A stretch of 64,000 nucleotides of DNA from an uncultured Candidatus Saccharibacteria bacterium. Lineage in GTDB: Bacteria; Patescibacteriota; UBA1384; XYA2-FULL-43-10; 1-14-0-10-43-13. Location: NCBI GenBank assembly GCA_964628585.1, contig CAZVMH010000002.1, forward strand, positions 33,751 through 97,750, read 5' to 3'. The position numbers and the translations under genes are program-made. Below are positions 2,587 through 64,000 of this stretch, piece by piece. The notes under the pieces were generated by a model. The model did no database searches and was not told the origin of the DNA. It worked only from the letters and a program-made list of their open reading frames with translations. Within the stretch, counting starts at the first letter, position 1; the number at the start of each line of letters is the position of its first letter.

Positions 2587-3858
2587 CTAATAATTGTACT
2601 GAGAACGAAGATGGGTGCGATGCAAACGCCGATTTACCAATAATACTAAAATTAAAAACAAAAAATTTGAAGTCATATAGAGTTTGCTTAAAAGGTTTGT
2701 GCCCATGATCGAGTTTATTAAAGACTCAAATTTTTTCTTTGAAAAAATAAAACCAGTCGATTTTAAACTTTGGTCAAAACTGGCGTTTGTCTGTTTGGGA
2801 ACGGTTGTATTTTCTACAGAACTTTCTTTTTGCTCATTCAATACTTGGTCATCCACATTTTCTACTACCAACTGAAAGCTCTTAGAACCCTTTTTGTTGA
2901 TAGATTCAGAAGATTTGCTACTACCAGTTGAGGGTGTATTTGTGGTAGTTGAGCTAGGAGTGCTTGTGCCATTTACACCATTTGAAAAGGCAATTCTTGA
3001 TTTTTCACTAGAATTAATTCTCCAGTCAGTCTCTTTGTTAATTGAAAACCAAGTAAAGCCCTGAATTCTTGTAAATTTATTTCGCAAGTCAGAAAACATT
3101 GCTGTTATCCAAGCTGCTTTATCGCCACCGCTTTCAGCAGAAGCAACTTCCATAATCAGAACATTTTTAGAAGATATGCTGGTAATCTCATTGTATGATT
3201 GTCCAAAAACTTCTGAAAATGATTGCCAGACACTCCATGACTGGGTTGTACCCCAGTTATAGCCATCTAGCCCGACAAAATCAACATACTCATCTCCAGG
3301 GTATATCTGACCATACGAACAGGGATCACCGTAAAAACGAACATTCGGTGACCATATCCATGATACATTTGTGACTCCATTATTTCGAAAACGATTTATA
3401 ACATATCGCCAGAAAGTCTTATGACTTTCTGTTGTGTTTCCATTGTTTGTTACTCCCCAAGGAGCCCACTCCGAATTCATTTCTGGAGCAAGGCTTATTC
3501 TGACCGGGGAACCAAAACTTTTTACGCTAGCCGAAAATTGATCGAGGTATGCATCATATTGACCTGCCGTAACATTATCATACGAGACGCCATTGCCTCC
3601 TATTTGGGGTTGCCATGTTAGTTCAGGAATACAACCGTGATCAGAAAATCTCTTGGCTATATCAACATAAAAAGGGTCCGACCAATCTTCGTACCATTTA
3701 CATGAGTTAAATTTTACTCCCAGGTCTGTTTCAAATCGACTCAAAACAGAGATATCAGAAGAAGAGTTCGGGAGAAAAATATTTGATTCCAAATTCCTAC
3801 CTTGTGTGTGAGGTGTTTTTATTGCAGTAGCAACAACCAAAATGGCAACTAAAAACAA
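2587..3858 (-). CDS. Secreted glycoside hydrolase, clan GH-A-like (GH26/GH5-like), with a C-terminal Ser/Thr-rich tail
   Basis: N-terminal signal/TM. Candidate acid/base and nucleophile glutamates in 'LAPEMNSEW' and 'LIMEVASAE', with aromatic-rich (beta/alpha)8-like spacing. Family assignment is tentative. Confidence 0.5.
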   Translation of the reverse strand: MFLVAILVVATAIKTPHTQGRNLESNIFLPNSSSDISVLSRFETDLGVKFNSCKWYEDWSDPFYVDIAKRFSDHGCIPELTWQPQIGGNGVSYDNVTAGQYDAYLDQFSASVKSFGSPVRISLAPEMNSEWAPWGVTNNGNTTESHKTFWRYVINRFRNNGVTNVSWIWSPNVRFYGDPCSYGQIYPGDEYVDFVGLDGYNWGTTQSWSVWQSFSEVFGQSYNEITSISSKNVLIMEVASAESGGDKAAWITAMFSDLRNKFTRIQGFTWFSINKETDWRINSSEKSRIAFSNGVNGTSTPSSTTTNTPSTGSSKSSESINKKGSKSFQLVVENVDDQVLNEQKESSVENTTVPKQTNASFDQSLKSTGFIFSKKKFESLINSIMGTNLLSKLYMTSNFLFLILVLLVNRRLHRTHLRSQYNY

Positions 3859-3951
3859 AACACGGAAAAGAGCTTTATTGATATACCCTCCAAAAACCCT
3901 CCTTGGTTTTCTAGATCAAGAATATAATGACACGGTAGCCGGTGTCAAGTT

Positions 3952-4983
3952 TTATGAAGCAGTAGGCGCAACCGAGTATCTATTAACTTTGTTCCAAAGA
4001 AGATTTTTCTTATCTCCAAATAGAACTCTAAAAATAGAATAATAGAAACAAAATATATTAATACAATAAAAAATCGAGAAAAGAGGGATAAAGGGGATAA
4101 TCCAATATTTTTTTTCAATGAATGAAACCAGTAGGGCAATAGCAGAAATTGTTATAAGGGTAGCTACAAATAAATGAATAAAAATAAGTGGACGCATAAT
4201 AGCAAGCGCGAAAGTAAGAATCCAAAGCATGTTATCAAAAAGTAAAAAATAAAGTTCTAAATTAAATTTTGAATTTGGTTTATAGAGTTTATGTAAAAAA
4301 ATGTTTTGCCAAGTTCCTGTATTCCAACGCAAAACTTGCTTCCAATAGTCTTTAAAAGTCATTGGGTCTTGGGTCGTAACAACAGCAAGAGGCGCATAGA
4401 TAATCTGACCCAATTTTTTCTTATGAATTTGAATTGTGAGGTCAAAGTCTTCAGTTAAAGTTGAGCTTTGTAGATCAAGTTTTTCTAAAACATCACTTCT
4501 ATAAAGAGAGGCGCAACCAGGCGCGACAGTAACTGCACTAATAAAATTTTGAGCGGCTTTATAAATTTTGTGAGAAACACAGTATTCATAGGTACGGAAT
4601 GCGCTAATTAATCCTTTTCTGTCAGAAGTCACTGTACCAACGATTAGAGCGGGTTTTTGTTTTTTATATTTTTTAATTTCACTCATGAAATTTTCAGACA
4701 AACGACTGTCGGCATCAGAAAAAAGAACGTATGAATATCGTTTTGTTAAATTGCGACTCTTTATTAATTTTTTTAGTGCCGTTGCTTTTCCGCAATTGTT
4801 CCTAAGATTCATTACGTTCACATTGGCTTTTTTTGCAATAGACGCAGTTTTGTCAGTTGAGCCGTCACTTACAACAAAAATATCATCAGGACTCAGAACT
4901 TTTTTCATAGCCTGCAATGATGCGCCAATTACTTCCTCTTCGTTTAGAGCGGGAACAACAACACAGAAAGTTTTTTTAGCCAT
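3952..4983 (-). CDS. Family-2 glycosyltransferase, processive synthase type (PgaC/IcaA/cellulose-synthase-like), with C-terminal TM helices
   Basis: GT-A motifs VVPALNEEE, SDGSTD and DADS (DxD); Q(V/L)xRW motif 'KQVLRW'; C-terminal hydrophobic helices. ATG at 4983 preferred over the upstream TTG at 5028. Confidence 0.8.
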   Translation of the reverse strand: MAKKTFCVVVPALNEEEVIGASLQAMKKVLSPDDIFVVSDGSTDKTASIAKKANVNVMNLRNNCGKATALKKLIKSRNLTKRYSYVLFSDADSRLSENFMSEIKKYKKQKPALIVGTVTSDRKGLISAFRTYEYCVSHKIYKAAQNFISAVTVAPGCASLYRSDVLEKLDLQSSTLTEDFDLTIQIHKKKLGQIIYAPLAVVTTQDPMTFKDYWKQVLRWNTGTWQNIFLHKLYKPNSKFNLELYFLLFDNMLWILTFALAIMRPLIFIHLFVATLITISAIALLVSFIEKKYWIIPFIPLFSIFYCINIFCFYYSIFRVLFGDKKNLLWNKVNRYSVAPTAS

Positions 4984-5332
4984 TTTTATGAAGCAATTTT
5001 CTGTATGATTTTCTAAAGAAAACCACAACGCTTGCTACAGCTGCGATTAAAATGTGACCTCCGAAGCTTGGTCCACCCATAGGTAGGTTGTACATAAGTT
5101 CCTTTCGAACAAAACTTGTTAATAAAAAATGAGGGGGAAAACCCTCATTTAATCCGATGGTTTGCATAGTACACTCATTAGATCTTTTTGTCAACAATGA
5201 AAAAAATATTTTAAAAAATAGTTAATACTTTTTCATACTTTTTTAAAACATGGCATATGGAAAATATTTGCTATTTAAAATTATTAAGTCCTGCTATTGA
5301 CAAAACTTATTTCTTTTGGTAAACAATGACTA

Positions 5333-7027
5333 ATGATTAAGAAATTACTTTTATTGATATGTCTAATCGCCTTGCCCTTTTGCGGACTAGATTTTTCACG
5401 TGCTTTTGCAGCCAATCCAAATCTAATTGCCAATCCCTCTGTAGAAACATTGGACTCAACTAAACTTTCTCCAGTCGATTGGTCTTTTAATAGTTGGGGA
5501 ACGAACACAACAACTCATAGCGTTACTACTACTTCACGACAAGACGGAGTGCGGAGTGTTACTATTAATATGCTAAGACGTACAAGTGGTGATGCTAAGT
5601 GGTATTTTAAACCAGTATCAGTTTCTGGGGGCACAGAATACACCTATACTGACTACTACCATTCTAATATTCCAACTGAATTGGTGGTTCAATTTACTCA
5701 TCAGGGCGGAAGAGTCACTTATCAGAGTTTGGGAACGGTTCAAAAAAATCTGGGCTGGGGCAAGTCAGATTTTTCTTTCACCACACCCCAATATGCAATA
5801 AAGGCAACTGTATTTCACTTAATTAATAAAATCGGATACTTGGGAATTGATAATTGTTATCTTGGCAAGAAAGAACCTACACTCCCAACTCCACCAGTAG
5901 TAATTACAGATAATGTCCCAAATAATTCAGTTGAAGAATCTGTTAACTCAGAACCCCGAGACTGGCTAAAAGGCGGATGGGGCAACAATACTGCAACTCT
6001 TTCATATTTAAATGAAGGACACACAGGAACAAAAAGTTTAAAAACTGAAATCACCAATTATGTCGATGGTGACGCCAAATGGTATTTTACTCCACAAAAA
6101 TTGCTTCCAAATACTACTTACCAATTTTCTGATTTTTATAAATCAGATGTTGCTAGTAGCGTTGTCCTACAAATAGATAAAACAGATGGTACAACTAGCT
6201 ATCAATATTTGAAAAATGCCGAGGTAGCTTCTGTTTGGACACAATACAAAGACACTTTTACAACACCAGCCGACGTTTCTACTTTAACTGTTTTCCATCT
6301 GATCGCTTCAGTAGGTTTTTTAATAACTGACGATTTTTCAATAACTCCTTTTGTTGCTCCTGCTTTCAACCAGCCAATAATTGCCATAACTTTCGACGAT
6401 GGTTGGGAATCGCAATACACAAACGGTCTATCAATTCTTTCAAAATATCAGATATTGGCTACATACTATTTAACTTCAAGTTTTCTTGAGCAACCAGAAT
6501 ATTTAACAAAACTAGAAGTGAACTCTCTCAAAATGTCTGGTGGTGAAATTGCTTCTCATTCTGTGACTCATCCATTTTTAACACAGTTGCCTTTGTCACA
6601 AATGCTCTCTGAATTAACTCAGTCTAAAAATGATTTAGAAAATGATTTTGGTAAAATTAACAGTTTCTCTGTTCCTTACGACGATTATAACGATACAGTA
6701 ATTAATTCAATTAAAACTCTTTATTCATCTGCTCGTATTTCTGACACAGGGTATAATAATCTAAATAATTTTGATGCGTACAGACTTAAAACTCAAAATA
6801 TTTCAAGTACTACAACTGTAACTGAATTAAATAGTTGGATTGCGGAAGCAAAAGTCAGCAAAAGTTTGCTAGTGCTTCTTTATCACCAAGTAGACAATAA
6901 TGGTGGAGCTTATAGTGTAACTCCAGAAAACTTTGATCTTCAAATGTCTGCCATCAAATCAAGCGGGATTAAAACCAGTACTATCAGCCAAGCCATGGCA
7001 GAGCTAACTCCACAATTAATAAAGTAA
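5333..7027 (+). CDS. Secreted polysaccharide deacetylase (NodB) with two CBM-like repeats; paralog of 774..2537
   Basis: Signal peptide. 'W.FNSWGTN...GDAKWYF' modules twice. NodB motifs ITFDDGW and HSVTHPFL. Same architecture as the first deacetylase but without the PP linker. Confidence 0.8.
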   Translation: MIKKLLLLICLIALPFCGLDFSRAFAANPNLIANPSVETLDSTKLSPVDWSFNSWGTNTTTHSVTTTSRQDGVRSVTINMLRRTSGDAKWYFKPVSVSGGTEYTYTDYYHSNIPTELVVQFTHQGGRVTYQSLGTVQKNLGWGKSDFSFTTPQYAIKATVFHLINKIGYLGIDNCYLGKKEPTLPTPPVVITDNVPNNSVEESVNSEPRDWLKGGWGNNTATLSYLNEGHTGTKSLKTEITNYVDGDAKWYFTPQKLLPNTTYQFSDFYKSDVASSVVLQIDKTDGTTSYQYLKNAEVASVWTQYKDTFTTPADVSTLTVFHLIASVGFLITDDFSITPFVAPAFNQPIIAITFDDGWESQYTNGLSILSKYQILATYYLTSSFLEQPEYLTKLEVNSLKMSGGEIASHSVTHPFLTQLPLSQMLSELTQSKNDLENDFGKINSFSVPYDDYNDTVINSIKTLYSSARISDTGYNNLNNFDAYRLKTQNISSTTTVTELNSWIAEAKVSKSLLVLLYHQVDNNGGAYSVTPENFDLQMSAIKSSGIKTSTISQAMAELTPQLIK

Positions 7028-53907: not shown

Positions 53908-53936
53908 TTGACTAAAGGGGAATATTTTGATATATT
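53908..53936 (+). promoter_or_regulatory. Sigma70-like promoter TTGACT-17-TATATT for rplJ-rplL
   Basis: Near-consensus hexamers with a 17-nt spacer. Confidence 0.6.
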
Positions 53937-54030
53937 TGATACATCCGCAGACAGTAGGTGCCCTAAAAGGCTTAATTACCTGCCGAGGAAAAAACTAGAA
54001 TCATGAATATGTAATCATTATTTTAGATTT

Positions 54031-54058
54031 AATCTGCGGAAAGGCAGATTTTTTTTAA
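54031..54058 (+). terminator. rplJ leader attenuator hairpin (AATCTGC-GGAAAG-GCAGATT plus T8)
   Basis: Intrinsic-terminator-like hairpin about 25 nt upstream of the rplJ start, as in characterised L10 leaders. Confidence 0.6.
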
Positions 54059-54083
54059 TTCATTATTGAGAAATTGGAGCCAA

Positions 54084-56632: not shown

Positions 56633-56718
56633 TTTATTTGACAACATATTTAGATATGTTGGATAATATAAATGTCAATATTTACTAATTTTTGTTTTGT
56701 TATTCTTTGGAGGGTTAT

Positions 56719-59700
56719 ATGCCAGAAGATCTACAAGCGGGCTTAGACGATGTAAAAAAGTTTGAAGATGAAATGAATAAGCAGCAGGAGGGTGCTGTTT
56801 CAACCCAAGAAGAGGAAAAAGCTAAGCCAATCTTATCTGAAGAAGAAAAAAGAGAAGAAGATCGTAAAGAGAACGAAAGACTAGACAAAGTTAGAGAAAA
56901 TTTTCTATCCTTAATCAAAGACCGTTCTGCCAGTTTAGTCCAGATAACAGATGAAAAAAATTTACTAGAACTTCTAAATCTGTCTGGAAATTACACACAA
57001 GAGCAACTAGAAAGAAGTTTAAACGCTGTTGATGATCTATTGAGTGACAATACCCTTGATTATGACAGACGAATGTCAATTGAAAAGTACTTACGAAATA
57101 CTGCTGACAAATTGCCACGAGAGGGTGATGGCAAAGAAGAAGAAGTTGACGAAGCCACCAGGTTAGCTAAAGTAAAAGAGAATTTCAGGCGGCTGATTAT
57201 TGATGATAAATACGATCTCTTTCAAATAACCGATAATGATAAATTGCCTGTTCTTTTGTGCTTGCCAAAAGATTTTACTCAAAAACAGCTTGAAGATAGT
57301 TTAAATGTAGCAGACGACGTTACAAGCGACAAGTCGATAGCGGGAGAAAAGCAGTTACCTCCCGAAGAACAGAGGGCCCATGAGACAAAAGTTTACGATC
57401 GACAAAGAACAATAGAAGCATATTTAAGAAGAAACACACTTAAGGGCAGAGAAGAAGAGAAGCCCGAAGATAAGCCAGAGGAAAAACCTGATGGCAGATA
57501 TGCTATGACATTTGAAAATGGGAAGCCTGTCGAAGAAGATACAATTCCTTTTAGCGAGGGAAATATTCCTCCAGAACACGCACTGGTAAGATTACAACAT
57601 GGTAAATTGGCTGTCATTGAAGGGGGCAAACCAGTTGAACCATCAAAAGAAATGATATTAATCGCCGATGTCTCAGAAGTATTAAAAGCAATGGCTTGGC
57701 GTTTGGCTGAAAATAGATTGAATGAGATTGTAAATAATAACAGAGACAGGACTGGCGATGGCAGGATTAAAGGATTTTTCAAATCACAGATGGCTAGAAT
57801 GGGAGAGAGGGGATATTTAACTAAATTCTATTATGAAGCATTAGAGGAGATGAGAAACAATCAAGACCTAATGGCGGAAATTCGTGGCAGGATGATGGGC
57901 AGAAGTGAATTTGTGGGTTCTGACCCAGCCAAAATTGAACAATGGCAAGTTCTTGATCAAGTTGTTCGAGAAATGGAAGAAGGAGTACTAGAATCTTGTG
58001 AAAAGGGTGAAGATATTGAAAATTCAGGAATAATATTTGCAGACCTTATAAATAGACATATTGCTGGAGAATTTGCCGACAGGGGTGCTTTTGAAGCAGC
58101 GGCAAGAGAAGCGATAGAAGCTGCGATTTCTTCAGGAAAGATAAAAAGAGAGCAATTTGCAACCGATAAGGGCAGACAGGGTGAAGCAGAAGGGCTAATG
58201 TATGCTTCAAATCTTTACGAAATAGCTGAGGCGCAGAGATTAAAAATTGAAGCACGTTATGAAAACGGTGAATGGTCAGAATTTTCACCAGAACAGAAAA
58301 AAACCATTGCAGAGCATATTAATGCAACTGGAAATTTGGATATAAGACTAGCAACTAAACTACGTGATATAAATGAGGAGCGTCCTGAGCGACCAGATCA
58401 GACCAGAGGATATTTGAGAGGAATGGACAGAATCGCCCAATTTGCTAGATCTCGGCCAATTCTTGGAGCTATTATAAATCCGACGACGATTGGTCTAATG
58501 TCTTCAATGGCAGTGAGAAGTCCGGCCAGAATGGCGGCAATGGCTGGAGTTGGTGCATTGGGAGTCGTCGGCGGTTTTGCATTACCAATTTTAGTTGGAG
58601 CTGGTTTGGGCGGAGCTTTCGCATATGCCAGAAGACATAACGCCTTAGCACATGACAGAGGGCTAGAGCAGAGGAGAGAAGCAATCGGTCAGCAGGGTCA
58701 GGGCGCTCGTGCAGAAAGGCTGCGAGATTTTGGTTTCTCTGGAATTGGTAGAAGTGCAGAAAGCCTTTTAGCCGATGTGACTGCTGGCAACGCCGATGCT
58801 GTTCTTGAGGCAGCCGCTCTTTTTCAAGCAGAAAGAGAATTAAGAGATGGGGGCAGACCGGTTGACTTGATTACAACCGAGCAAGAGACTGGTGAGCAAT
58901 TTAAAACTAACTATATTCCAAAAACCGAATTAAAAATTGCTATTAGAGACCAAATTGGCTCACTAGATGCTGGAGCCCTAAGCGCAAGGGTAGCTGAAAT
59001 TAAGGGCCGAATTGCAGAACAAGACTCTGGTTTTGAAAAATTTAGAGGCAGAGAGTCTTGGAAGGCAGCAGCTTTTGGAGCAGCAGCTGGAGCCGTGGCG
59101 GGTGCAGCAGCTATTGAAATTAAAGATTATGTCCAAGAACACTATATGGGGCAGGAAACTGGTGTAACAATGCTGGAATACGCACAAGGAGAAAGACCAG
59201 CAGTGGCTCATTATGAAGTTGGCGGAACAGACATTGTTCCAATGGACAAAGTACATTCTGCAGTTACAATGCCAGATACTGGAGAAAAAATTGATGTGGA
59301 ATATAGATTGGGTTACGACGGCAAATTAATACCAATTCATACTGGTTTGCCAGAAGGATATAGCTTTGATGCGGCTGGTAACCTTGTGCATCATGTTGAT
59401 GGTATTGAGGGTGGTCCAGTTACAGCAGAAAATTGGGATCAAATGCGGAGTATATTGGAAAGCCAGCACGGGGACTTATTAGAGAAACAGCATGTTAGTT
59501 GGTCTGGATTTGGTTACAATGAAAATGCTCCGTCTGGAAATTCATATACCGATTTCTATATACCAAGAGCCGAGGGCACAGAACTACAAATGGACTATAT
59601 AGGCAATCAAGATGGTTCAGTCACAATTAGTGCTGAAAGAATGCTTGACCATGTTGCTTTTTCTCATGGCAAAGAGGTTAAAGTTACTCCTGAAATGCTA

Positions 59701-60723
59701 GATAGGTTAGTTGCAACAATTTCTCCAAGAGACAGAGTACTACAGCACGAGGCATTGGTAGCCCACATTCAGGATGGAAAAATTACTTTTCCAAAAGAAC
59801 TTGCTGAAAAAATATTTGATCTAATTAATGGCAAAGTTGAACCAAAGCCTGGCATTCAAATTACACTTGATCAGGTGGTTCATAGTGATTCGGAGGGCCA
59901 ATCAAGTCTGTACAGTCTTGCCGCAGATTATGCTGAAGGAACAGCTCAAATTGATCCAGTTCCAGCAATAGATGAAACAGTGCCACCACCAGTAATAGAC
60001 TACGTGCCAGCAAAAGATATTATTCCTCCAGTAGTTATTCCTTGGGACAGAAGAAAACCAATTGGTGATGTTGAGGGTGGAAAAAAAGTCCAAGAGCGGG
60101 GTGCTAGCGAGAAAGAAAACAAAGAGAAGAAAGGCAAAATCAAAATTATTGACCAAAAAAATAAAGCAGTTTTATGGGCGGTAGGGAAGTCAGAACAAAG
60201 AGAAAAAGATAAACTTAAAGCAGAAGAAGGACAAAAACTTGAAGCGGTACAACAAAAAATTGCTTCTATGCCAGACGGAAGTCCGGTAATGGAAAATCTT
60301 TCAGTGTCGGGCGAAAAACCAGTTGAAGGAAAGCTCTCAAATGAAAGCGTTGAACAAGACCTTAATCGTGCCGTAAGCGCAGTTCCTGAACGCGAGATAG
60401 ATTCCGTTATAAGTGGATTATCAAAAATTTCAAGAGAAAGAGACAATTTTGCGCAACAAAAAGCTTATATGCAAATGGGTGCCAGAGAGGGTGGAAGCGT
60501 TGGCACTTTTTCTTCAAAAGTTCCTATTAGGGAAGGTGAAGCTTGGAAATTTATTAAAGCAGAAGATTTAACAGAAGAAAACCAGAACGAAATTGACGAT
60601 TACATAAGAAGAGTAATGAAAAAATTAATGGATCGATCAAATCAAATAAAAGCAAACGCTCCAGCTAGGACAAGTTTGGGAGATAGAGTTAAAACACTTT
60701 TTGGTAGAAATAAGGAGAGATAA
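56719..60723 (+). CDS. Very large (1334 aa) charged coiled-coil protein with a central Gly/Ala-rich TM hairpin
   Basis: Continuous ORF, RBS GGAGGG; central 'ILGAIINPTTIGLMSSMAV...AGVGALGVVGGFALPILVGAGLGGAFAYA'; no recognisable catalytic motif. Confidence 0.6.
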   Translation: MPEDLQAGLDDVKKFEDEMNKQQEGAVSTQEEEKAKPILSEEEKREEDRKENERLDKVRENFLSLIKDRSASLVQITDEKNLLELLNLSGNYTQEQLERSLNAVDDLLSDNTLDYDRRMSIEKYLRNTADKLPREGDGKEEEVDEATRLAKVKENFRRLIIDDKYDLFQITDNDKLPVLLCLPKDFTQKQLEDSLNVADDVTSDKSIAGEKQLPPEEQRAHETKVYDRQRTIEAYLRRNTLKGREEEKPEDKPEEKPDGRYAMTFENGKPVEEDTIPFSEGNIPPEHALVRLQHGKLAVIEGGKPVEPSKEMILIADVSEVLKAMAWRLAENRLNEIVNNNRDRTGDGRIKGFFKSQMARMGERGYLTKFYYEALEEMRNNQDLMAEIRGRMMGRSEFVGSDPAKIEQWQVLDQVVREMEEGVLESCEKGEDIENSGIIFADLINRHIAGEFADRGAFEAAAREAIEAAISSGKIKREQFATDKGRQGEAEGLMYASNLYEIAEAQRLKIEARYENGEWSEFSPEQKKTIAEHINATGNLDIRLATKLRDINEERPERPDQTRGYLRGMDRIAQFARSRPILGAIINPTTIGLMSSMAVRSPARMAAMAGVGALGVVGGFALPILVGAGLGGAFAYARRHNALAHDRGLEQRREAIGQQGQGARAERLRDFGFSGIGRSAESLLADVTAGNADAVLEAAALFQAERELRDGGRPVDLITTEQETGEQFKTNYIPKTELKIAIRDQIGSLDAGALSARVAEIKGRIAEQDSGFEKFRGRESWKAAAFGAAAGAVAGAAAIEIKDYVQEHYMGQETGVTMLEYAQGERPAVAHYEVGGTDIVPMDKVHSAVTMPDTGEKIDVEYRLGYDGKLIPIHTGLPEGYSFDAAGNLVHHVDGIEGGPVTAENWDQMRSILESQHGDLLEKQHVSWSGFGYNENAPSGNSYTDFYIPRAEGTELQMDYIGNQDGSVTISAERMLDHVAFSHGKEVKVTPEMLDRLVATISPRDRVLQHEALVAHIQDGKITFPKELAEKIFDLINGKVEPKPGIQITLDQVVHSDSEGQSSLYSLAADYAEGTAQIDPVPAIDETVPPPVIDYVPAKDIIPPVVIPWDRRKPIGDVEGGKKVQERGASEKENKEKKGKIKIIDQKNKAVLWAVGKSEQREKDKLKAEEGQKLEAVQQKIASMPDGSPVMENLSVSGEKPVEGKLSNESVEQDLNRAVSAVPEREIDSVISGLSKISRERDNFAQQKAYMQMGAREGGSVGTFSSKVPIREGEAWKFIKAEDLTEENQNEIDDYIRRVMKKLMDRSNQIKANAPARTSLGDRVKTLFGRNKER

Positions 60724-60739
60724 GTAATTAGGAGCATAT

Positions 60740-61075
60740 ATGGATGAAAATAAAATCGATAACAAAGTAAGTGCCTTGGTCCCAGAACTTAAAGAATATG
60801 TTCAGGCGCTTATGATAGAAAAGGGGAATGATATCATGCCGGCAGATATTCAGGCAGAAATGATGCATGATCTTTATACTCGTTTCGGAGATTATCTTAT
60901 GGTTAATCTGGCAAAGTCTATGGAGAAAGAAGCTTCGTATCAATTTGAAGATATGCTCTCTAACCAGGATCCATCTGAAGAGGTGATAAATTTTATCAAG
61001 GAAAAAACTGATTTTGAAAAAGTTGTGAAAGAAACTTGCGACGAATTTAGAGAGATATATATCGGTAAAAAATAA
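60740..61075 (+). CDS. Small acidic protein (111 aa)
   Basis: RBS TAGGAG; follows the giant ORF by 16 nt; own terminator at 61090..61116. Confidence 0.5.
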   Translation: MDENKIDNKVSALVPELKEYVQALMIEKGNDIMPADIQAEMMHDLYTRFGDYLMVNLAKSMEKEASYQFEDMLSNQDPSEEVINFIKEKTDFEKVVKETCDEFREIYIGKK

Positions 61076-61089
61076 GTAGTAACTATTCA

Positions 61090-61116
61090 AAAAAGAGAAA
61101 CAAAGTCTCTTTTTTG
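61090..61116 (+). terminator. A/T-rich intrinsic terminator (AAAGAGA-loop-TCTCTTT plus T-run)
   Basis: Hairpin plus a T-run. Confidence 0.5.
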
Positions 61117-61134
61117 TTTTCCCTGTCTTAGGTA

Positions 61135-61163
61135 TTGACAAAATAAATTAGTTGTGCTATAAT
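61135..61163 (+). promoter_or_regulatory. Consensus sigma70 promoter with extended -10: TTGACA-17-TGCTATAAT
   Basis: Perfect -35 and -10 hexamers, 17-nt spacer, TG at -15/-14. Confidence 0.7.
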
Positions 61164-61169
61164 GCATCC

Positions 61170-61346
61170 ATCATGAGGGTGAGTGAGGAAGCATTCTCAA
61201 GAGGGACAAATTAATTAGTTATTCAGTCACGCCAGATATAATTACAAATTATGCGGTAGTGTGCTGGACAGTCATTTCTGCCTTCGGGCAGAGCGTAGGT
61301 TCCCCCTCCGCCTACGAGACTGTTCGGCACAGTGCCGCATTTTTTA
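61170..61346 (+). ncRNA. Candidate ~175-nt structured transcript (sRNA or riboswitch-type leader) ending in a hairpin plus T6
   Basis: Bounded by the consensus promoter and the CGGCA-CAG-TGCCG plus TTTTTT element. Internal hairpins CTGCC-TTCG-GGCAG and CGTAGG...CCTACG. No convincing ORF or RBS. Confidence 0.3.
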
Positions 61347-61448
61347 CAGGATTTTGGTAAGATATGCGTCTGCACGTTAACATACGGTGGTATGGCCTCT
61401 CAAGTAGGCCGCCACTAATATAACCTCGCAAAACGAGGTGGAGGGATC

Positions 61449-61961
61449 ATGAGACTCAGTATTGCTATCCTTCTGGCGTTAATAGGCGCCAGCCTCCTCG
61501 CTCCGTGCGAGGCGGTAGAGATCTACGCACCGTTAGAACCCAAGGCGACGAAAGTCGCTCCTCCGGTGATTACGGTAATACACGACGACGGTGACTACGA
61601 TGTGGTTACTGAGCGCTCGGGTAGAGTTCCTGGGATAGAGCGAAAGCTCTCCGAGCTCGAATCGGAGTGGCGCAGGCTTAACCGCCGAAGCCACATCGAC
61701 TACAAAGCTCGACAGAGAGCGAACGCTCTCTCTGTTCAGATTGTCTCTCTTCGGAAGGCAATAGGAACAGAGCGATCAGAGAGAGTCTCCGCTGACCAAT
61801 GGGAAAGAACCCAGAGGGAAGCTGGAGATATCAATCTATCTGGGCGTATCAACAACGAGGCCCAGGCAAGGCGAACTGGCGACGAGGACAACATGCTCCT
61901 CACAGTCTGCCTCTGCGGAATTCTTCTGGTAGGATTGGCGTACGTCGCAACATCGCGCTGA
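61449..61961 (+). CDS. GC-rich small bitopic protein (signal peptide plus a C-terminal TM anchor)
   Basis: RBS GAGGTGGAGGG; 'MRLSIAILLALIGASLLAPCEA'; C-terminus LLTVCLCGILLVGLAYVA. Confidence 0.5.
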   Translation: MRLSIAILLALIGASLLAPCEAVEIYAPLEPKATKVAPPVITVIHDDGDYDVVTERSGRVPGIERKLSELESEWRRLNRRSHIDYKARQRANALSVQIVSLRKAIGTERSERVSADQWERTQREAGDINLSGRINNEAQARRTGDEDNMLLTVCLCGILLVGLAYVATSR

Positions 61962-62011
61962 CGCCACAGACCATAGCGGCACCGGCTAAACAGGTGCAGA
62001 AAGAGATTTCA

Positions 62012-62359
62012 ATGAACACGATTCTTACGGTTTTCGCACTTCTAGTCGTTGGTATCATTGTCGCTAATGCCCTTAAGGGACGCGGTGGTGCTCCCGCCGG
62101 TGCTGTTGTGCCGGTCCCACCCATGGGTATGCTCAATGTTAACGGGGGTTGGAGCACCCCAGTCGACGCTGATCAGGCCGTTAAGGCCGGTTGCCGACTT
62201 GTCGACGTAGTCACTTCTGGCTACGCCTACCGCAAGGTAGAGCCGGCTCGGAACGTGACCATTGGGGCAGTGAATGCTGCCATCGTCGGACGCGAGAAAG
62301 ATGGCGTACGACGTCTCCGCGGCTACGCGCGGGGAGAAGTTATCAACATTGGGCCGTAG
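62012..62359 (+). CDS. GC-rich small secreted protein (115 aa)
   Basis: 'MNTILTVFALLVVGIIVANA' signal peptide; followed by a hairpin terminator. The upstream in-frame extension to 61799 is unlikely. Confidence 0.45.
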   Translation: MNTILTVFALLVVGIIVANALKGRGGAPAGAVVPVPPMGMLNVNGGWSTPVDADQAVKAGCRLVDVVTSGYAYRKVEPARNVTIGAVNAAIVGREKDGVRRLRGYARGEVINIGP

Positions 62360-62426
62360 CTCCCAAAGAACAGAAGTCCCTGTCGCATCCGCGGCAGGGC
62401 TTCTTTCGTTTCTAGGACATATTTAC

Positions 62427-64000
62427 TTATTTTTTAGCTTGTGATTTTTCGAATGCATCAAAATTGTCAAATAACCCATTAACTTTTATCTTTTTATCTT
62501 CTTGTTCTTTCAACCATTTTGTTGCCGCTTCACTATTTTCGAAATTTTGATTCTCTTTTTCTATAGTGTTTTTTTTCTTTTTGTTCTTGTCATAATTGAA
62601 CTTGGCAAACTTTACTTTCTCTCCATCTATTGTTATCTCATAATAGATATCTTTCTTTTTCTTTTCATCTGTTTCATCAACGAGAGCGATGACTTGACCG
62701 CTAACTATTTCTTTTTCTACTTCCTTATCACCTTCTTTAAATTTAATCTTTACCTTTGCTTTTTCTGGTTCTTTTGTTGGCTCTGGTGGAGTAGGCTCTT
62801 TTGCAAGTTTGGGATCTTTGTATCTCTCTGCTATCATATCAACATTGCGTTTTTGAAGTAAATCTTCAGGGGAAATATTACGAATTACATTAAATTCTTT
62901 TTCTTCGCCGGTTACTTTGTCTATTTCAGTTCCCAGCGACGGATCAAATTCGCTGTAAACCAACATTTTCTGATGAGGTGGTCTGTCAACTATATTTACA
63001 ATTTTTATTCGATGCATTCCGCCATCATTATCTTCATATACCCATTCCTGACCGATTGCAAAATCTGGTTTAAGCTCTCTTTCAGCAAGATTTCTTACAA
63101 TTGAGTCTCGAGGTTCTGGCTGATAACGTCGTCTTTGTATTTCTTGTTTTTCTTTCATGTCTTTTCTTCTGTCTTCGAATGCTCTGTTTTGCAATTCATT
63201 ACTAGTACCACGCCAAGCAAAGCGAGTCAAAAGAGCGCCCAAAGTTGTCATGGCATTGCGTCCCAATTCGTTCCAAGCTGCTCCTGCCAAAGGTCTGGCT
63301 AATGATTCGTTCAATATATGAGAACCGGATTCTCCGAGTGGAAGAACAGTTGCTTTGTCAGCAACAGCCTGGAGCATTTCGGCGCTACTGTTATAATGAA
63401 AAATGTAATCTTTGGCAATACCCAAACTTTGTTGCATAGCCTCGTTTACTCGTTGCACTCCATGATAAATACCATTTCCATCTAAATCCATTTTTACAAT
63501 TTCACCCCGAGCCAGTTGCTCAGCAAGTTGGGTCTTGGCGTTAAGAAGACTCATAATACCACCACCAATTCCACCAGCCAGAGCAAGCCCCTCCTGAATC
63601 CATTCCCATCTGCGGTTGTAAGCCTGCAGTTGTTTCTCTTGAAAGTCTATTGATTTTCCAGGAGCAACTTTGCTCGATTGATAGACTTCAGTTCCGGTAT
63701 TTAAAACGGGTCCAGTTGGACCACCCTGCATTGGGTCTCCAAGTTCGCCTCTAGTTTCAAGGGGTTCACCAAGTACTCGAGTATCAATAAAAGGCGTACC
63801 CCCATTTGTCTGTTCAAAAGTTACAGTATTTTGTTCTGAATCGTGAATAAAGTTAACTAAACTTTCAATTGCAGCGTTACGAGCCTTGTAGTGACTTGCA
63901 AGTTGTTCGTCGGTCAGAGTTTCTCTATTTGTCGGCTCTTCATCTGGAATATGATCCGCTAATTCACGAGCCTTTTTATAATATCTTTCTCTGCTAATTA
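62427..64000 (-). CDS. Hypothetical protein, 5'-partial (reading frame open to the window edge); KE-rich C-terminus
   Basis: The minus-strand frame was manually translated from 64000 to 63731 without a stop (…ELADHIPDEEPTNRETLTDEQL…GDPMQGGPTGP…), so the listed 434-aa ORF is an internal fragment of a longer gene. Confidence 0.55.
   Translation of the reverse strand, partial: ISRERYYKKARELADHIPDEEPTNRETLTDEQLASHYKARNAAIESLVNFIHDSEQNTVTFEQTNGGTPFIDTRVLGEPLETRGELGDPMQGGPTGPVLNTGTEVYQSSKVAPGKSIDFQEKQLQAYNRRWEWIQEGLALAGGIGGGIMSLLNAKTQLAEQLARGEIVKMDLDGNGIYHGVQRVNEAMQQSLGIAKDYIFHYNSSAEMLQAVADKATVLPLGESGSHILNESLARPLAGAAWNELGRNAMTTLGALLTRFAWRGTSNELQNRAFEDRRKDMKEKQEIQRRRYQPEPRDSIVRNLAERELKPDFAIGQEWVYEDNDGGMHRIKIVNIVDRPPHQKMLVYSEFDPSLGTEIDKVTGEEKEFNVIRNISPEDLLQKRNVDMIAERYKDPKLAKEPTPPEPTKEPEKAKVKIKFKEGDKEVEKEIVSGQVIALVDETDEKKKKDIYYEITIDGEKVKFAKFNYDKNKKKKNTIEKENQNFENSEAATKWLKEQEDKKIKVNGLFDNFDAFEKSQAKK

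Follow-up and report, generated by a model that had tools for sequence, protein, structure and literature searches.

A probable new structured RNA with its own promoter ahead of two putative envelope-protein genes

The 64,000-nt stretch of DNA analyzed here (the window) contains, ahead of two small GC-rich genes, a conserved and previously uncatalogued structured RNA. It is probably a new leader or small RNA of one rare lineage, and of an ordinary kind, with a promoter, a leader or sRNA, and a putative terminator. The interpretation that we prefer, with somewhat better than even confidence, is a new leader that works by attenuation and, when terminated, gives a stable small RNA. Following this, we propose that transcription from a perfect extended -10 promoter begins at about position 61170 and yields an RNA comprising, in order, a 5' stem-loop with Shine-Dalgarno (SD)-like tracts, a neutral AU-rich spacer, a Y-shaped junction followed by U5-6, and a structured untranslated region of about 100 nt. 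The Y-junction and the U-tract would act as a strong but leaky intrinsic terminator, at which most transcripts would stop at about 61343-61346 so that a stable RNA of about 175 nt accumulates, and the read-through fraction would be the sole mRNA for the downstream genes ORF1 and ORF2. An exposed C-rich loop of the junction, which is anti-SD-like, could pair with ribosome-binding sites, that of its own operon included.

Promoter and genomic surroundings

The host is an AT-rich (38% GC) bacterium, and among its genes are rplA, rplJL with an L10 leader, tgt and topA, together with those for an Mfd-like helicase and a type IV pilus. The DUF5663 match and the large number of orphan proteins hint at a Patescibacteria/CPR-like organism. 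The L10 leader and a tRNA are ordinary features, which indicates that the context is chromosomal. The elements identified upstream of the RNA are as follows:

Positions 129-199: tRNA at the start of the window (Rfam)
Positions 53927-54065: L10 leader upstream of rplJ (Rfam, 73.7 bits)
Positions 61088-61121, plus strand: intrinsic terminator of the upstream DUF5663 gene, an 11-bp stem followed by a T-run
Positions 61135-61163, plus strand: extended -10 sigma-70 promoter TTGACA-17-TGcTATAAT (consensus scan, 12/12)

The promoter is composed of TTGACA (61135-61140), a 17-nt spacer with its terminal TG at 61155-56, and TATAAT (61158-61163). In accordance with the first-pass annotation, which had ranked it as the best promoter in the window, it is the sole 12/12 site on either strand of the 64 kb, the runners-up reaching 11/12 and lacking the TG, and the exact pattern is expected to occur by chance only 0.01 times. 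Moreover, the 12/12 hexamers, the spacing and the TG are identical in the related loci L013 and L014 and invariant in alignment A2. Canonical sigma-70 signals seem valid in this organism, since a 10/12 site with TG (53908) serves as promoter of the L10 leader confirmed by Rfam. The upstream DUF5663 gene has its own terminator, an equivalent hairpin of which is carried by L013; the RNA promoter is thereby shielded from upstream transcription and stands alone.

Orphan proteins of very large size (1343 and 697 aa), which have no Pfam match and contain charged low-complexity stretches, are encoded in the vicinity. The respective genes are found in the window at 56692-60723 and on the minus strand from 62427 to beyond 64000, where the gene for the 697-aa protein overruns the end of the window, as well as at 3306-5755 of the related locus L001. 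Each large orphan gene is paired with a small DUF5663 gene, and the pairs are convergent around the RNA operon, forming a repeated module. When compared to the related locus L002, positions 58500-64000 are a mosaic in which blocks of 99-100% identity (e.g., 60100-60299, 61000-61199 and 63200-63699) are found beside blocks of 46-75%, and the sequences suggest frequent recombination among strains. Additionally, the L7/L12 ORF (54623-55255) encodes 210 aa with Pfam domains from residue 88, implying an N-terminal extension of about 85 aa, and its L013 orthologue was called at 170 aa; the extension may be real or the start call over-long.

Conserved structure of the RNA

Relatives of the locus were recovered by exact-protein look-ups, which yielded syntenic variants, four of them complete and one partial. 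They include copies from the same species (L003-L012), strains that are about 86% identical (L001, L002 and L014), the distant relative L013, in which the DUF5663 protein, ORF1 and ORF2 are 66, 47 and 49% identical at the protein level, and a fifth lineage, L023, represented by a short contig whose first bases already lie within the 3' strand of the basal helix described below. The synteny of the RNA with ORF1 and ORF2 is strict in every recovered locus. The following elements were assigned to the RNA up to its putative terminator:

Positions 61170-61210, plus strand: 5' domain, from the predicted start, with a terminal stem-loop at about 61171-61202 (consensus hairpin)
Positions 61211-61250, plus strand: unstructured AU-rich linker, showing neutral evolution and indels and differing in length between the window and L013
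Positions 61251-61340, plus strand: three-way junction (folds and consensus structure)
Positions 61340-61346, plus strand: U-tract, the putative 3' end of the terminated RNA, with T6 at 61340-61345 and T5 in relatives

As judged from the promoter geometry, transcription would start at about 61170. The fold of 61170-61350 has an energy of -73.2 kcal/mol as compared to -45.7 ± 3.8 kcal/mol for dinucleotide shuffles (z = -7.19), none of 200 shuffles folding as well, and the corresponding RNA of L013 reaches z = -6.05. The stem-loop of the 5' domain has a purine-rich loop (GAGGAAGC), and the domain contains the SD-like purine tracts GAGGG, GAGGAAG and GAGGGA, the last of which is single-stranded at 61201-61206; no conserved ORF lies downstream of these tracts. 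The junction is built on a basal helix of 22 bp (61251-61273 with 61318-61340, with one G/G mismatch), which encloses hairpin A (61276-61293, with a UUCG loop) and hairpin B (61294-61316, with the C-rich loop UCCCCCUCC at 61301-61309), and the T-tract lies directly 3' of this helix. The several GC-rich hairpins previously seen by eye are therefore real, among them the UUCG-tetraloop hairpin CTGCC-TTCG-GGCAG at 61278-61291, but they are parts of one three-way junction and not independent structures.

The comparison with L013 was carried out against a saturated neutral background, since third positions of conserved four-fold-type codons are just 16-47% identical between this relative and the window. 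The junction with its T-tract is 88% identical and the 5' domain 74% identical to L013, far above the neutral level and, for comparison, next to 77% nucleotide identity for the L10 gene, whereas the linker has a column identity of 26%. The element thus consists of two RNA modules under selection with a neutral spacer between them, and its sequence is conserved precisely from the predicted +1 onwards. All 36 pairs form in the four complete variants, with standard pairs in 144 of 144 stem cells. Five pairs vary and still pair, one through a compensatory double change from G-C to A-U in hairpin A and four through wobble-preserving changes; L023 adds a change from U.G to U-A in the basal helix, assuming that its missing 5' strand is unchanged. 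Thus, with regard to the covariation that had been named as a check on the structure, every substitution in a stem keeps pairing, but the signal is not significant, being equaled by 126 of 500 shuffles (n = 4 sequences). Furthermore, 20 of the 22 pairs of the basal helix are invariant despite the saturated neutral divergence. This invariance exceeds what pairing or termination explains and, on the alignment, points to an extra constraint, which might be a protein partner or an alternative pairing.

The fold is strand-specific: it contains G.U pairs, and covariance model R1 scores 119 bits on the plus strand as compared to 34 bits on the minus strand, which favors an RNA over a DNA palindrome. 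It is very improbable that the region is not an RNA feature at all and represents such a palindrome, a leader-peptide gene, a gene for a small protein on the reverse strand or one end of a GC-rich mobile island. A leader peptide could be read from the 13-codon ORF at 61173, but a 1-nt deletion converts this ORF into a different frame of 29 codons in L013 although the nucleotides are still conserved; similarly, the minus-strand ORFs, one of which encodes 50 aa in the window, lie in different frames in the window and in L013. An island end might be seen in the perfect 13-nt inverted repeat flanking the GC-rich island of ORF1 and ORF2, and in the GC3 of this island (0.57 as compared to about 0.3 in its neighbors). 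However, the repeat is not conserved, being absent in L013, and was put down to the coincidence of two genes that both end in KK-stop, and the island is present, syntenic and equally GC-rich in all relatives. Moreover, three pattern scans of viral contigs and blastn searches against phages and plasmids gave no match.

A search for paralogues with R1 and the pattern of the 5' domain found one copy only, both in the window and in L013. Scanning genome contigs with the DUF5663 protein revealed no relative, and a two-motif DNA pattern retrieved from genome and metagenome contigs only GC-rich chance matches (L015-L022), which were rejected as homologues because they possess neither promoter nor junction and are not matched by R1. 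As far as searchable data go, the RNA appears to be restricted to one rare lineage, whereby absence from the scanned metagenome collection is weak evidence of rarity because this collection misses JGI/Logan contigs that carry the exact pattern.

With respect to known families, positions 61135-61460 gave no match to Rfam 15 at gathering thresholds. At E <= 10 and with permissive filters, two chance-level matches were obtained for 1.8 kb, both outside the RNA, and none for 300 nt, and L013 gave two chance-level matches only, so that the impression that no known RNA family is present was borne out. The first-pass annotation had offered an sRNA or a riboswitch/attenuator. The former and/or an attenuator fits a conserved, strand-specific structure with its own promoter and T-tract ahead of genes with no other recognizable promoter, whereas a metabolite riboswitch is not supported. 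A ligand-sensing riboswitch using the terminator as expression platform would agree with a promoter-proximal conserved structure, including a conserved 5' domain, upstream of a terminator and membrane-protein genes, and yet we regard it as very unlikely: besides the lack of an Rfam match even at E <= 10, the junction strands are longer by 2 and 1 nt in L013, which argues against a fixed binding pocket, and the one conserved module besides the junction is a hairpin domain of about 40 nt. Additionally, the basal helix is very stable with no evident competitor, and the upstream linker, neutral at 26% identity, holds no conserved antiterminator.

Termination, read-through and downstream genes

GCCGCA forms the end of the basal helix, and T6 follows without a gap, as the stem plus T6 recognized in the first-pass annotation had implied, and the T5-6 run is kept in five of five lineages. 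A GC-rich stem that runs straight into a U-rich tract, as in intrinsic terminators, is thus present. The stable fold is branched and encloses 90 nt, and a branched 90-nt "loop" is atypical of intrinsic terminators. A local hairpin, CGGCACAGTGCCG, was flagged together with the T-run by the terminator scan, and the 3' strand of the basal helix can by itself fold into a canonical terminator hairpin of 5 bp with a loop of 3 nt; both conformers hence set a stem against the U-tract. We propose that the Y-shaped junction and the U-tract form an intrinsic terminator of branched, unusual architecture. Since the helix and U5-6 are conserved in all lineages, many transcripts would be expected to stop there, giving an abundant RNA of about 175 nt.

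Alternatively, the RNA might be a non-terminating structured 5' UTR in which the 5' hairpin and the Y-junction control mRNA stability or translation, in a STAB-SD-like manner or by binding a protein, with the T-run being incidental. The location of the 5' hairpin 1-2 nt from the predicted start, the SD-like GAGGGA with no associated ORF and the extension of conservation beyond the T-tract are in line with this possibility, as is the fact that branched structures are unusual terminators. We nevertheless consider it quite unlikely, because GCCGCA and T5-6 are kept in five lineages while the neighboring spacer diverges, and because the 5-bp hairpin of the 3' strand and the branched conformer both abut the U-tract.

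Downstream of the T-tract, the following elements were found:

Positions 61364-61384, plus strand: conserved block AUGYG-N3-4-GCAC-N-UURACAUA, retained by each of the five lineages, L013 and L023 among them
Positions 61388-61416, plus strand: post-terminator hairpin in the read-through 5' UTR (fold)
Positions 61424-61445, plus strand: small hairpin CCUCG-CAAAA-CGAGG abutting the SD sequence of ORF1 (fold)
Positions 61449-61961, plus strand: ORF1, 170 aa, GC-rich, signal-like at the N terminus, charged in the middle and with a membrane anchor at the C terminus
Positions 62012-62359, plus strand: ORF2, 115 aa, GC-rich, with an N-terminal membrane helix
Positions 62378-62410, plus strand: terminator at the end of the operon, a GC-rich stem of 9 bp with a T-rich tail after it

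In the hairpin at 61388-61416, three pairs show compensatory changes and 90% of cells are paired; 13 of 500 shuffles reach as many compensatory cells and, likewise, 13 of 500 reach the covariation score, and L013 is without a corresponding hairpin. Together with the conserved block, this hairpin indicates that the region past the T-tract is transcribed and constrained as RNA, so that read-through is likely and the element would be a 5' leader. The combination of this constraint with a conserved terminator favors an attenuating leader from which a stable short RNA would arise as well. As a separate observation, the two halves of the block at 61364-61384 might base-pair with the terminator's 3' strand (GUGC-CGCAU), with a variable bulge.

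If the RNA were instead a purely trans-acting sRNA, termination would be efficient, ORF1 and ORF2 would be transcribed from their own unrecognized promoter and the RNA would act elsewhere, for instance through its C-rich loop on ribosome-binding sites. The perfect promoter of its own and the helix with the U-tract are in accordance with this, as is the pairing of the C-rich loop with several strong SD sites in the window (-14 to -16.5 kcal/mol); moreover, the conserved block includes a -35-like hexamer, TTGACA or TTAACA, at 61379-61384. However, this hexamer is not followed by a usable -10 in any lineage, so that a second promoter at this site was rejected, and no further promoter-like site was found between the T-tract and the operon end on the plus strand of the window, L013 and L014 by a plain consensus scan, which could miss a weak or non-sigma-70 promoter before ORF1. 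Taking into account also the strict synteny with ORF1 and ORF2 and the RNA-level covariation past the T-tract, we consider a purely trans-acting role unlikely and retain the attenuating leader.

The part of loop B at 61304-61312 (CCCUCCGCC) is complementary to GGUGGAGGG (61437-61445) at the ribosome-binding site of ORF1. The predicted duplex with the ORF1 initiation region (-19.2 kcal/mol) ranks first among the 55 translation-initiation regions of the window, and energies of -15.9 to -19.2 kcal/mol were calculated for L001, L014 and L023. As the ORF1 initiation region ranks just 7th of 25 in L013, the assignment of loop B as a specific binder of the ORF1 ribosome-binding site was downgraded, and the conserved property of the loop would be a generic anti-SD character rather than a proven specific target. 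Loop B might just as well pair with the GAGGG tracts conserved in the 5' domain; since the two partners are invariant, covariation cannot probe their pairing.

ORF1 starts at 61449, 103 nt past the T-tract, with GGAGGG at 61440-61445 as its SD sequence, as expected from the earlier placement of the next coding sequence about 100 nt downstream with its own SD. Differences between strains are dominated by third codon positions, with 54 as compared to 29 and 17 at the other positions in ORF1 and 33 as compared to 12 and 13 in ORF2, which supports that both are real genes. Neither has a Pfam or PHROG match, and a HMMER search run exhaustively over 1.84 billion representatives revealed no relatives outside this lineage, ORF2 having only two true relatives; the AlphaFold model of ORF2 (pLDDT 47) is not usable. 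ORF1 and ORF2 are two small, lineage-restricted putative envelope-protein genes. At the site of the operon-end terminator, L013 carries a 13-bp hairpin.

GC3 in the window is 0.57-0.58 for ORF1 and ORF2 as compared to 0.28-0.33 for their neighbors, with the same pattern in L013. Taking the island as a whole (61449-62410 in the window and 10694-11640 in L013), the GC content is 55-60% and GC3 is 0.57-0.63, as compared to 0.28-0.42 in flanking genes. Since this bias is kept in a relative with saturated neutral sites, it does not reflect a recent transfer awaiting amelioration. ORF1 and ORF2 also evolve faster (47-49% amino acid identity) than their neighbors (65-66%). The first 15 nt of the RNA (61170-61184, ATCATGAGGGTGAGT) match the start of ORF1 (61446-61460, ATCATGAGACTCAGT) at 12 of 15 positions, a likeness that is probably due to chance, as L013 shares only ATGAG. 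The signal-peptide codons of ORF1 are the top-ranked pairing site of the 5' domain in both species, but this pairing is no better than that of shuffled queries (p of about 0.05-0.14).

Significance and relation to known systems

To our knowledge, almost no regulatory RNAs have been described for small-genome uncultivated Patescibacteria-like bacteria. The locus offers a clean candidate for such an RNA, with a perfect promoter, two conserved RNA modules, a branched terminator and linkage to orphan envelope proteins, and, if the Y-shaped terminator is functional, an unusual terminator architecture would be added. Likewise, if the invariant helix has a binding partner, a lineage-specific control circuit could come to light. 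In a more far-reaching interpretation, which we find quite unlikely, the 22-bp helix with its near-invariant sequence and the loop of anti-SD character would be the hallmarks of a new regulatory RNA class that binds a protein or the ribosome. This class would be specific to a lineage of ultra-small, probably episymbiotic (CPR-like) cells and would gate two fast-evolving, anomalously GC-rich envelope proteins that could mediate contact with host cells. The constraint on both strands of the helix would then reflect a dedicated partner and not mere termination. At present, the RNA is one more unclassified leader or sRNA family from few metagenomic contigs, which is useful as an Rfam-style seed and leaves the general picture unchanged.

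With its compact Y shape and long basal helix, the junction is reminiscent of the phi29 pRNA or 5S rRNA; contrarily, it shows no sequence or model match to them, it has no phage context and its arm lengths are unlike those of 5S rRNA. Pairing of the 5' and 3' ends around a central bubble, as in 6S RNA, was not seen in the predicted structure, in which the 5' and 3' domains fold separately, and no Rfam match to this family was obtained. STAB-SD of Bacillus cryIIIA is a 5' mRNA stabilizer with an SD-like sequence. The SD-like purine tracts and the hairpin at the extreme 5' end resemble it, which is a resemblance only, and, unlike in STAB-SD, the tracts might pair with the C-rich loop instead.

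RsaE/RoxS (Rfam RF01820) are C-rich-loop sRNAs of Gram-positive bacteria that act on ribosome-binding sites. The terminated RNA proposed here would be similar in its length of about 100-200 nt, its own promoter, its intrinsic terminator and an unpaired C-rich motif complementary to GGAGG sites. By contrast, it has a single C-rich loop where RsaE/RoxS have two or more, a different fold with no Rfam match, strict linkage to one operon and probably a Patescibacteria-like host. A further comparison is with attenuating leaders, among them SreA and SreB of Listeria, which are terminated SAM-riboswitch RNAs and thus small RNAs arising from premature termination of a leader. Here, unlike in those systems, no known aptamer and no conserved antiterminator are present, and a three-way junction is built on the terminator stem. 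What is shared is a promoter-proximal structure with a stem and U-tract before genes that have no other promoter and, as predicted for the RNA described here, one promoter would give rise to both a short terminated product and a read-through mRNA.
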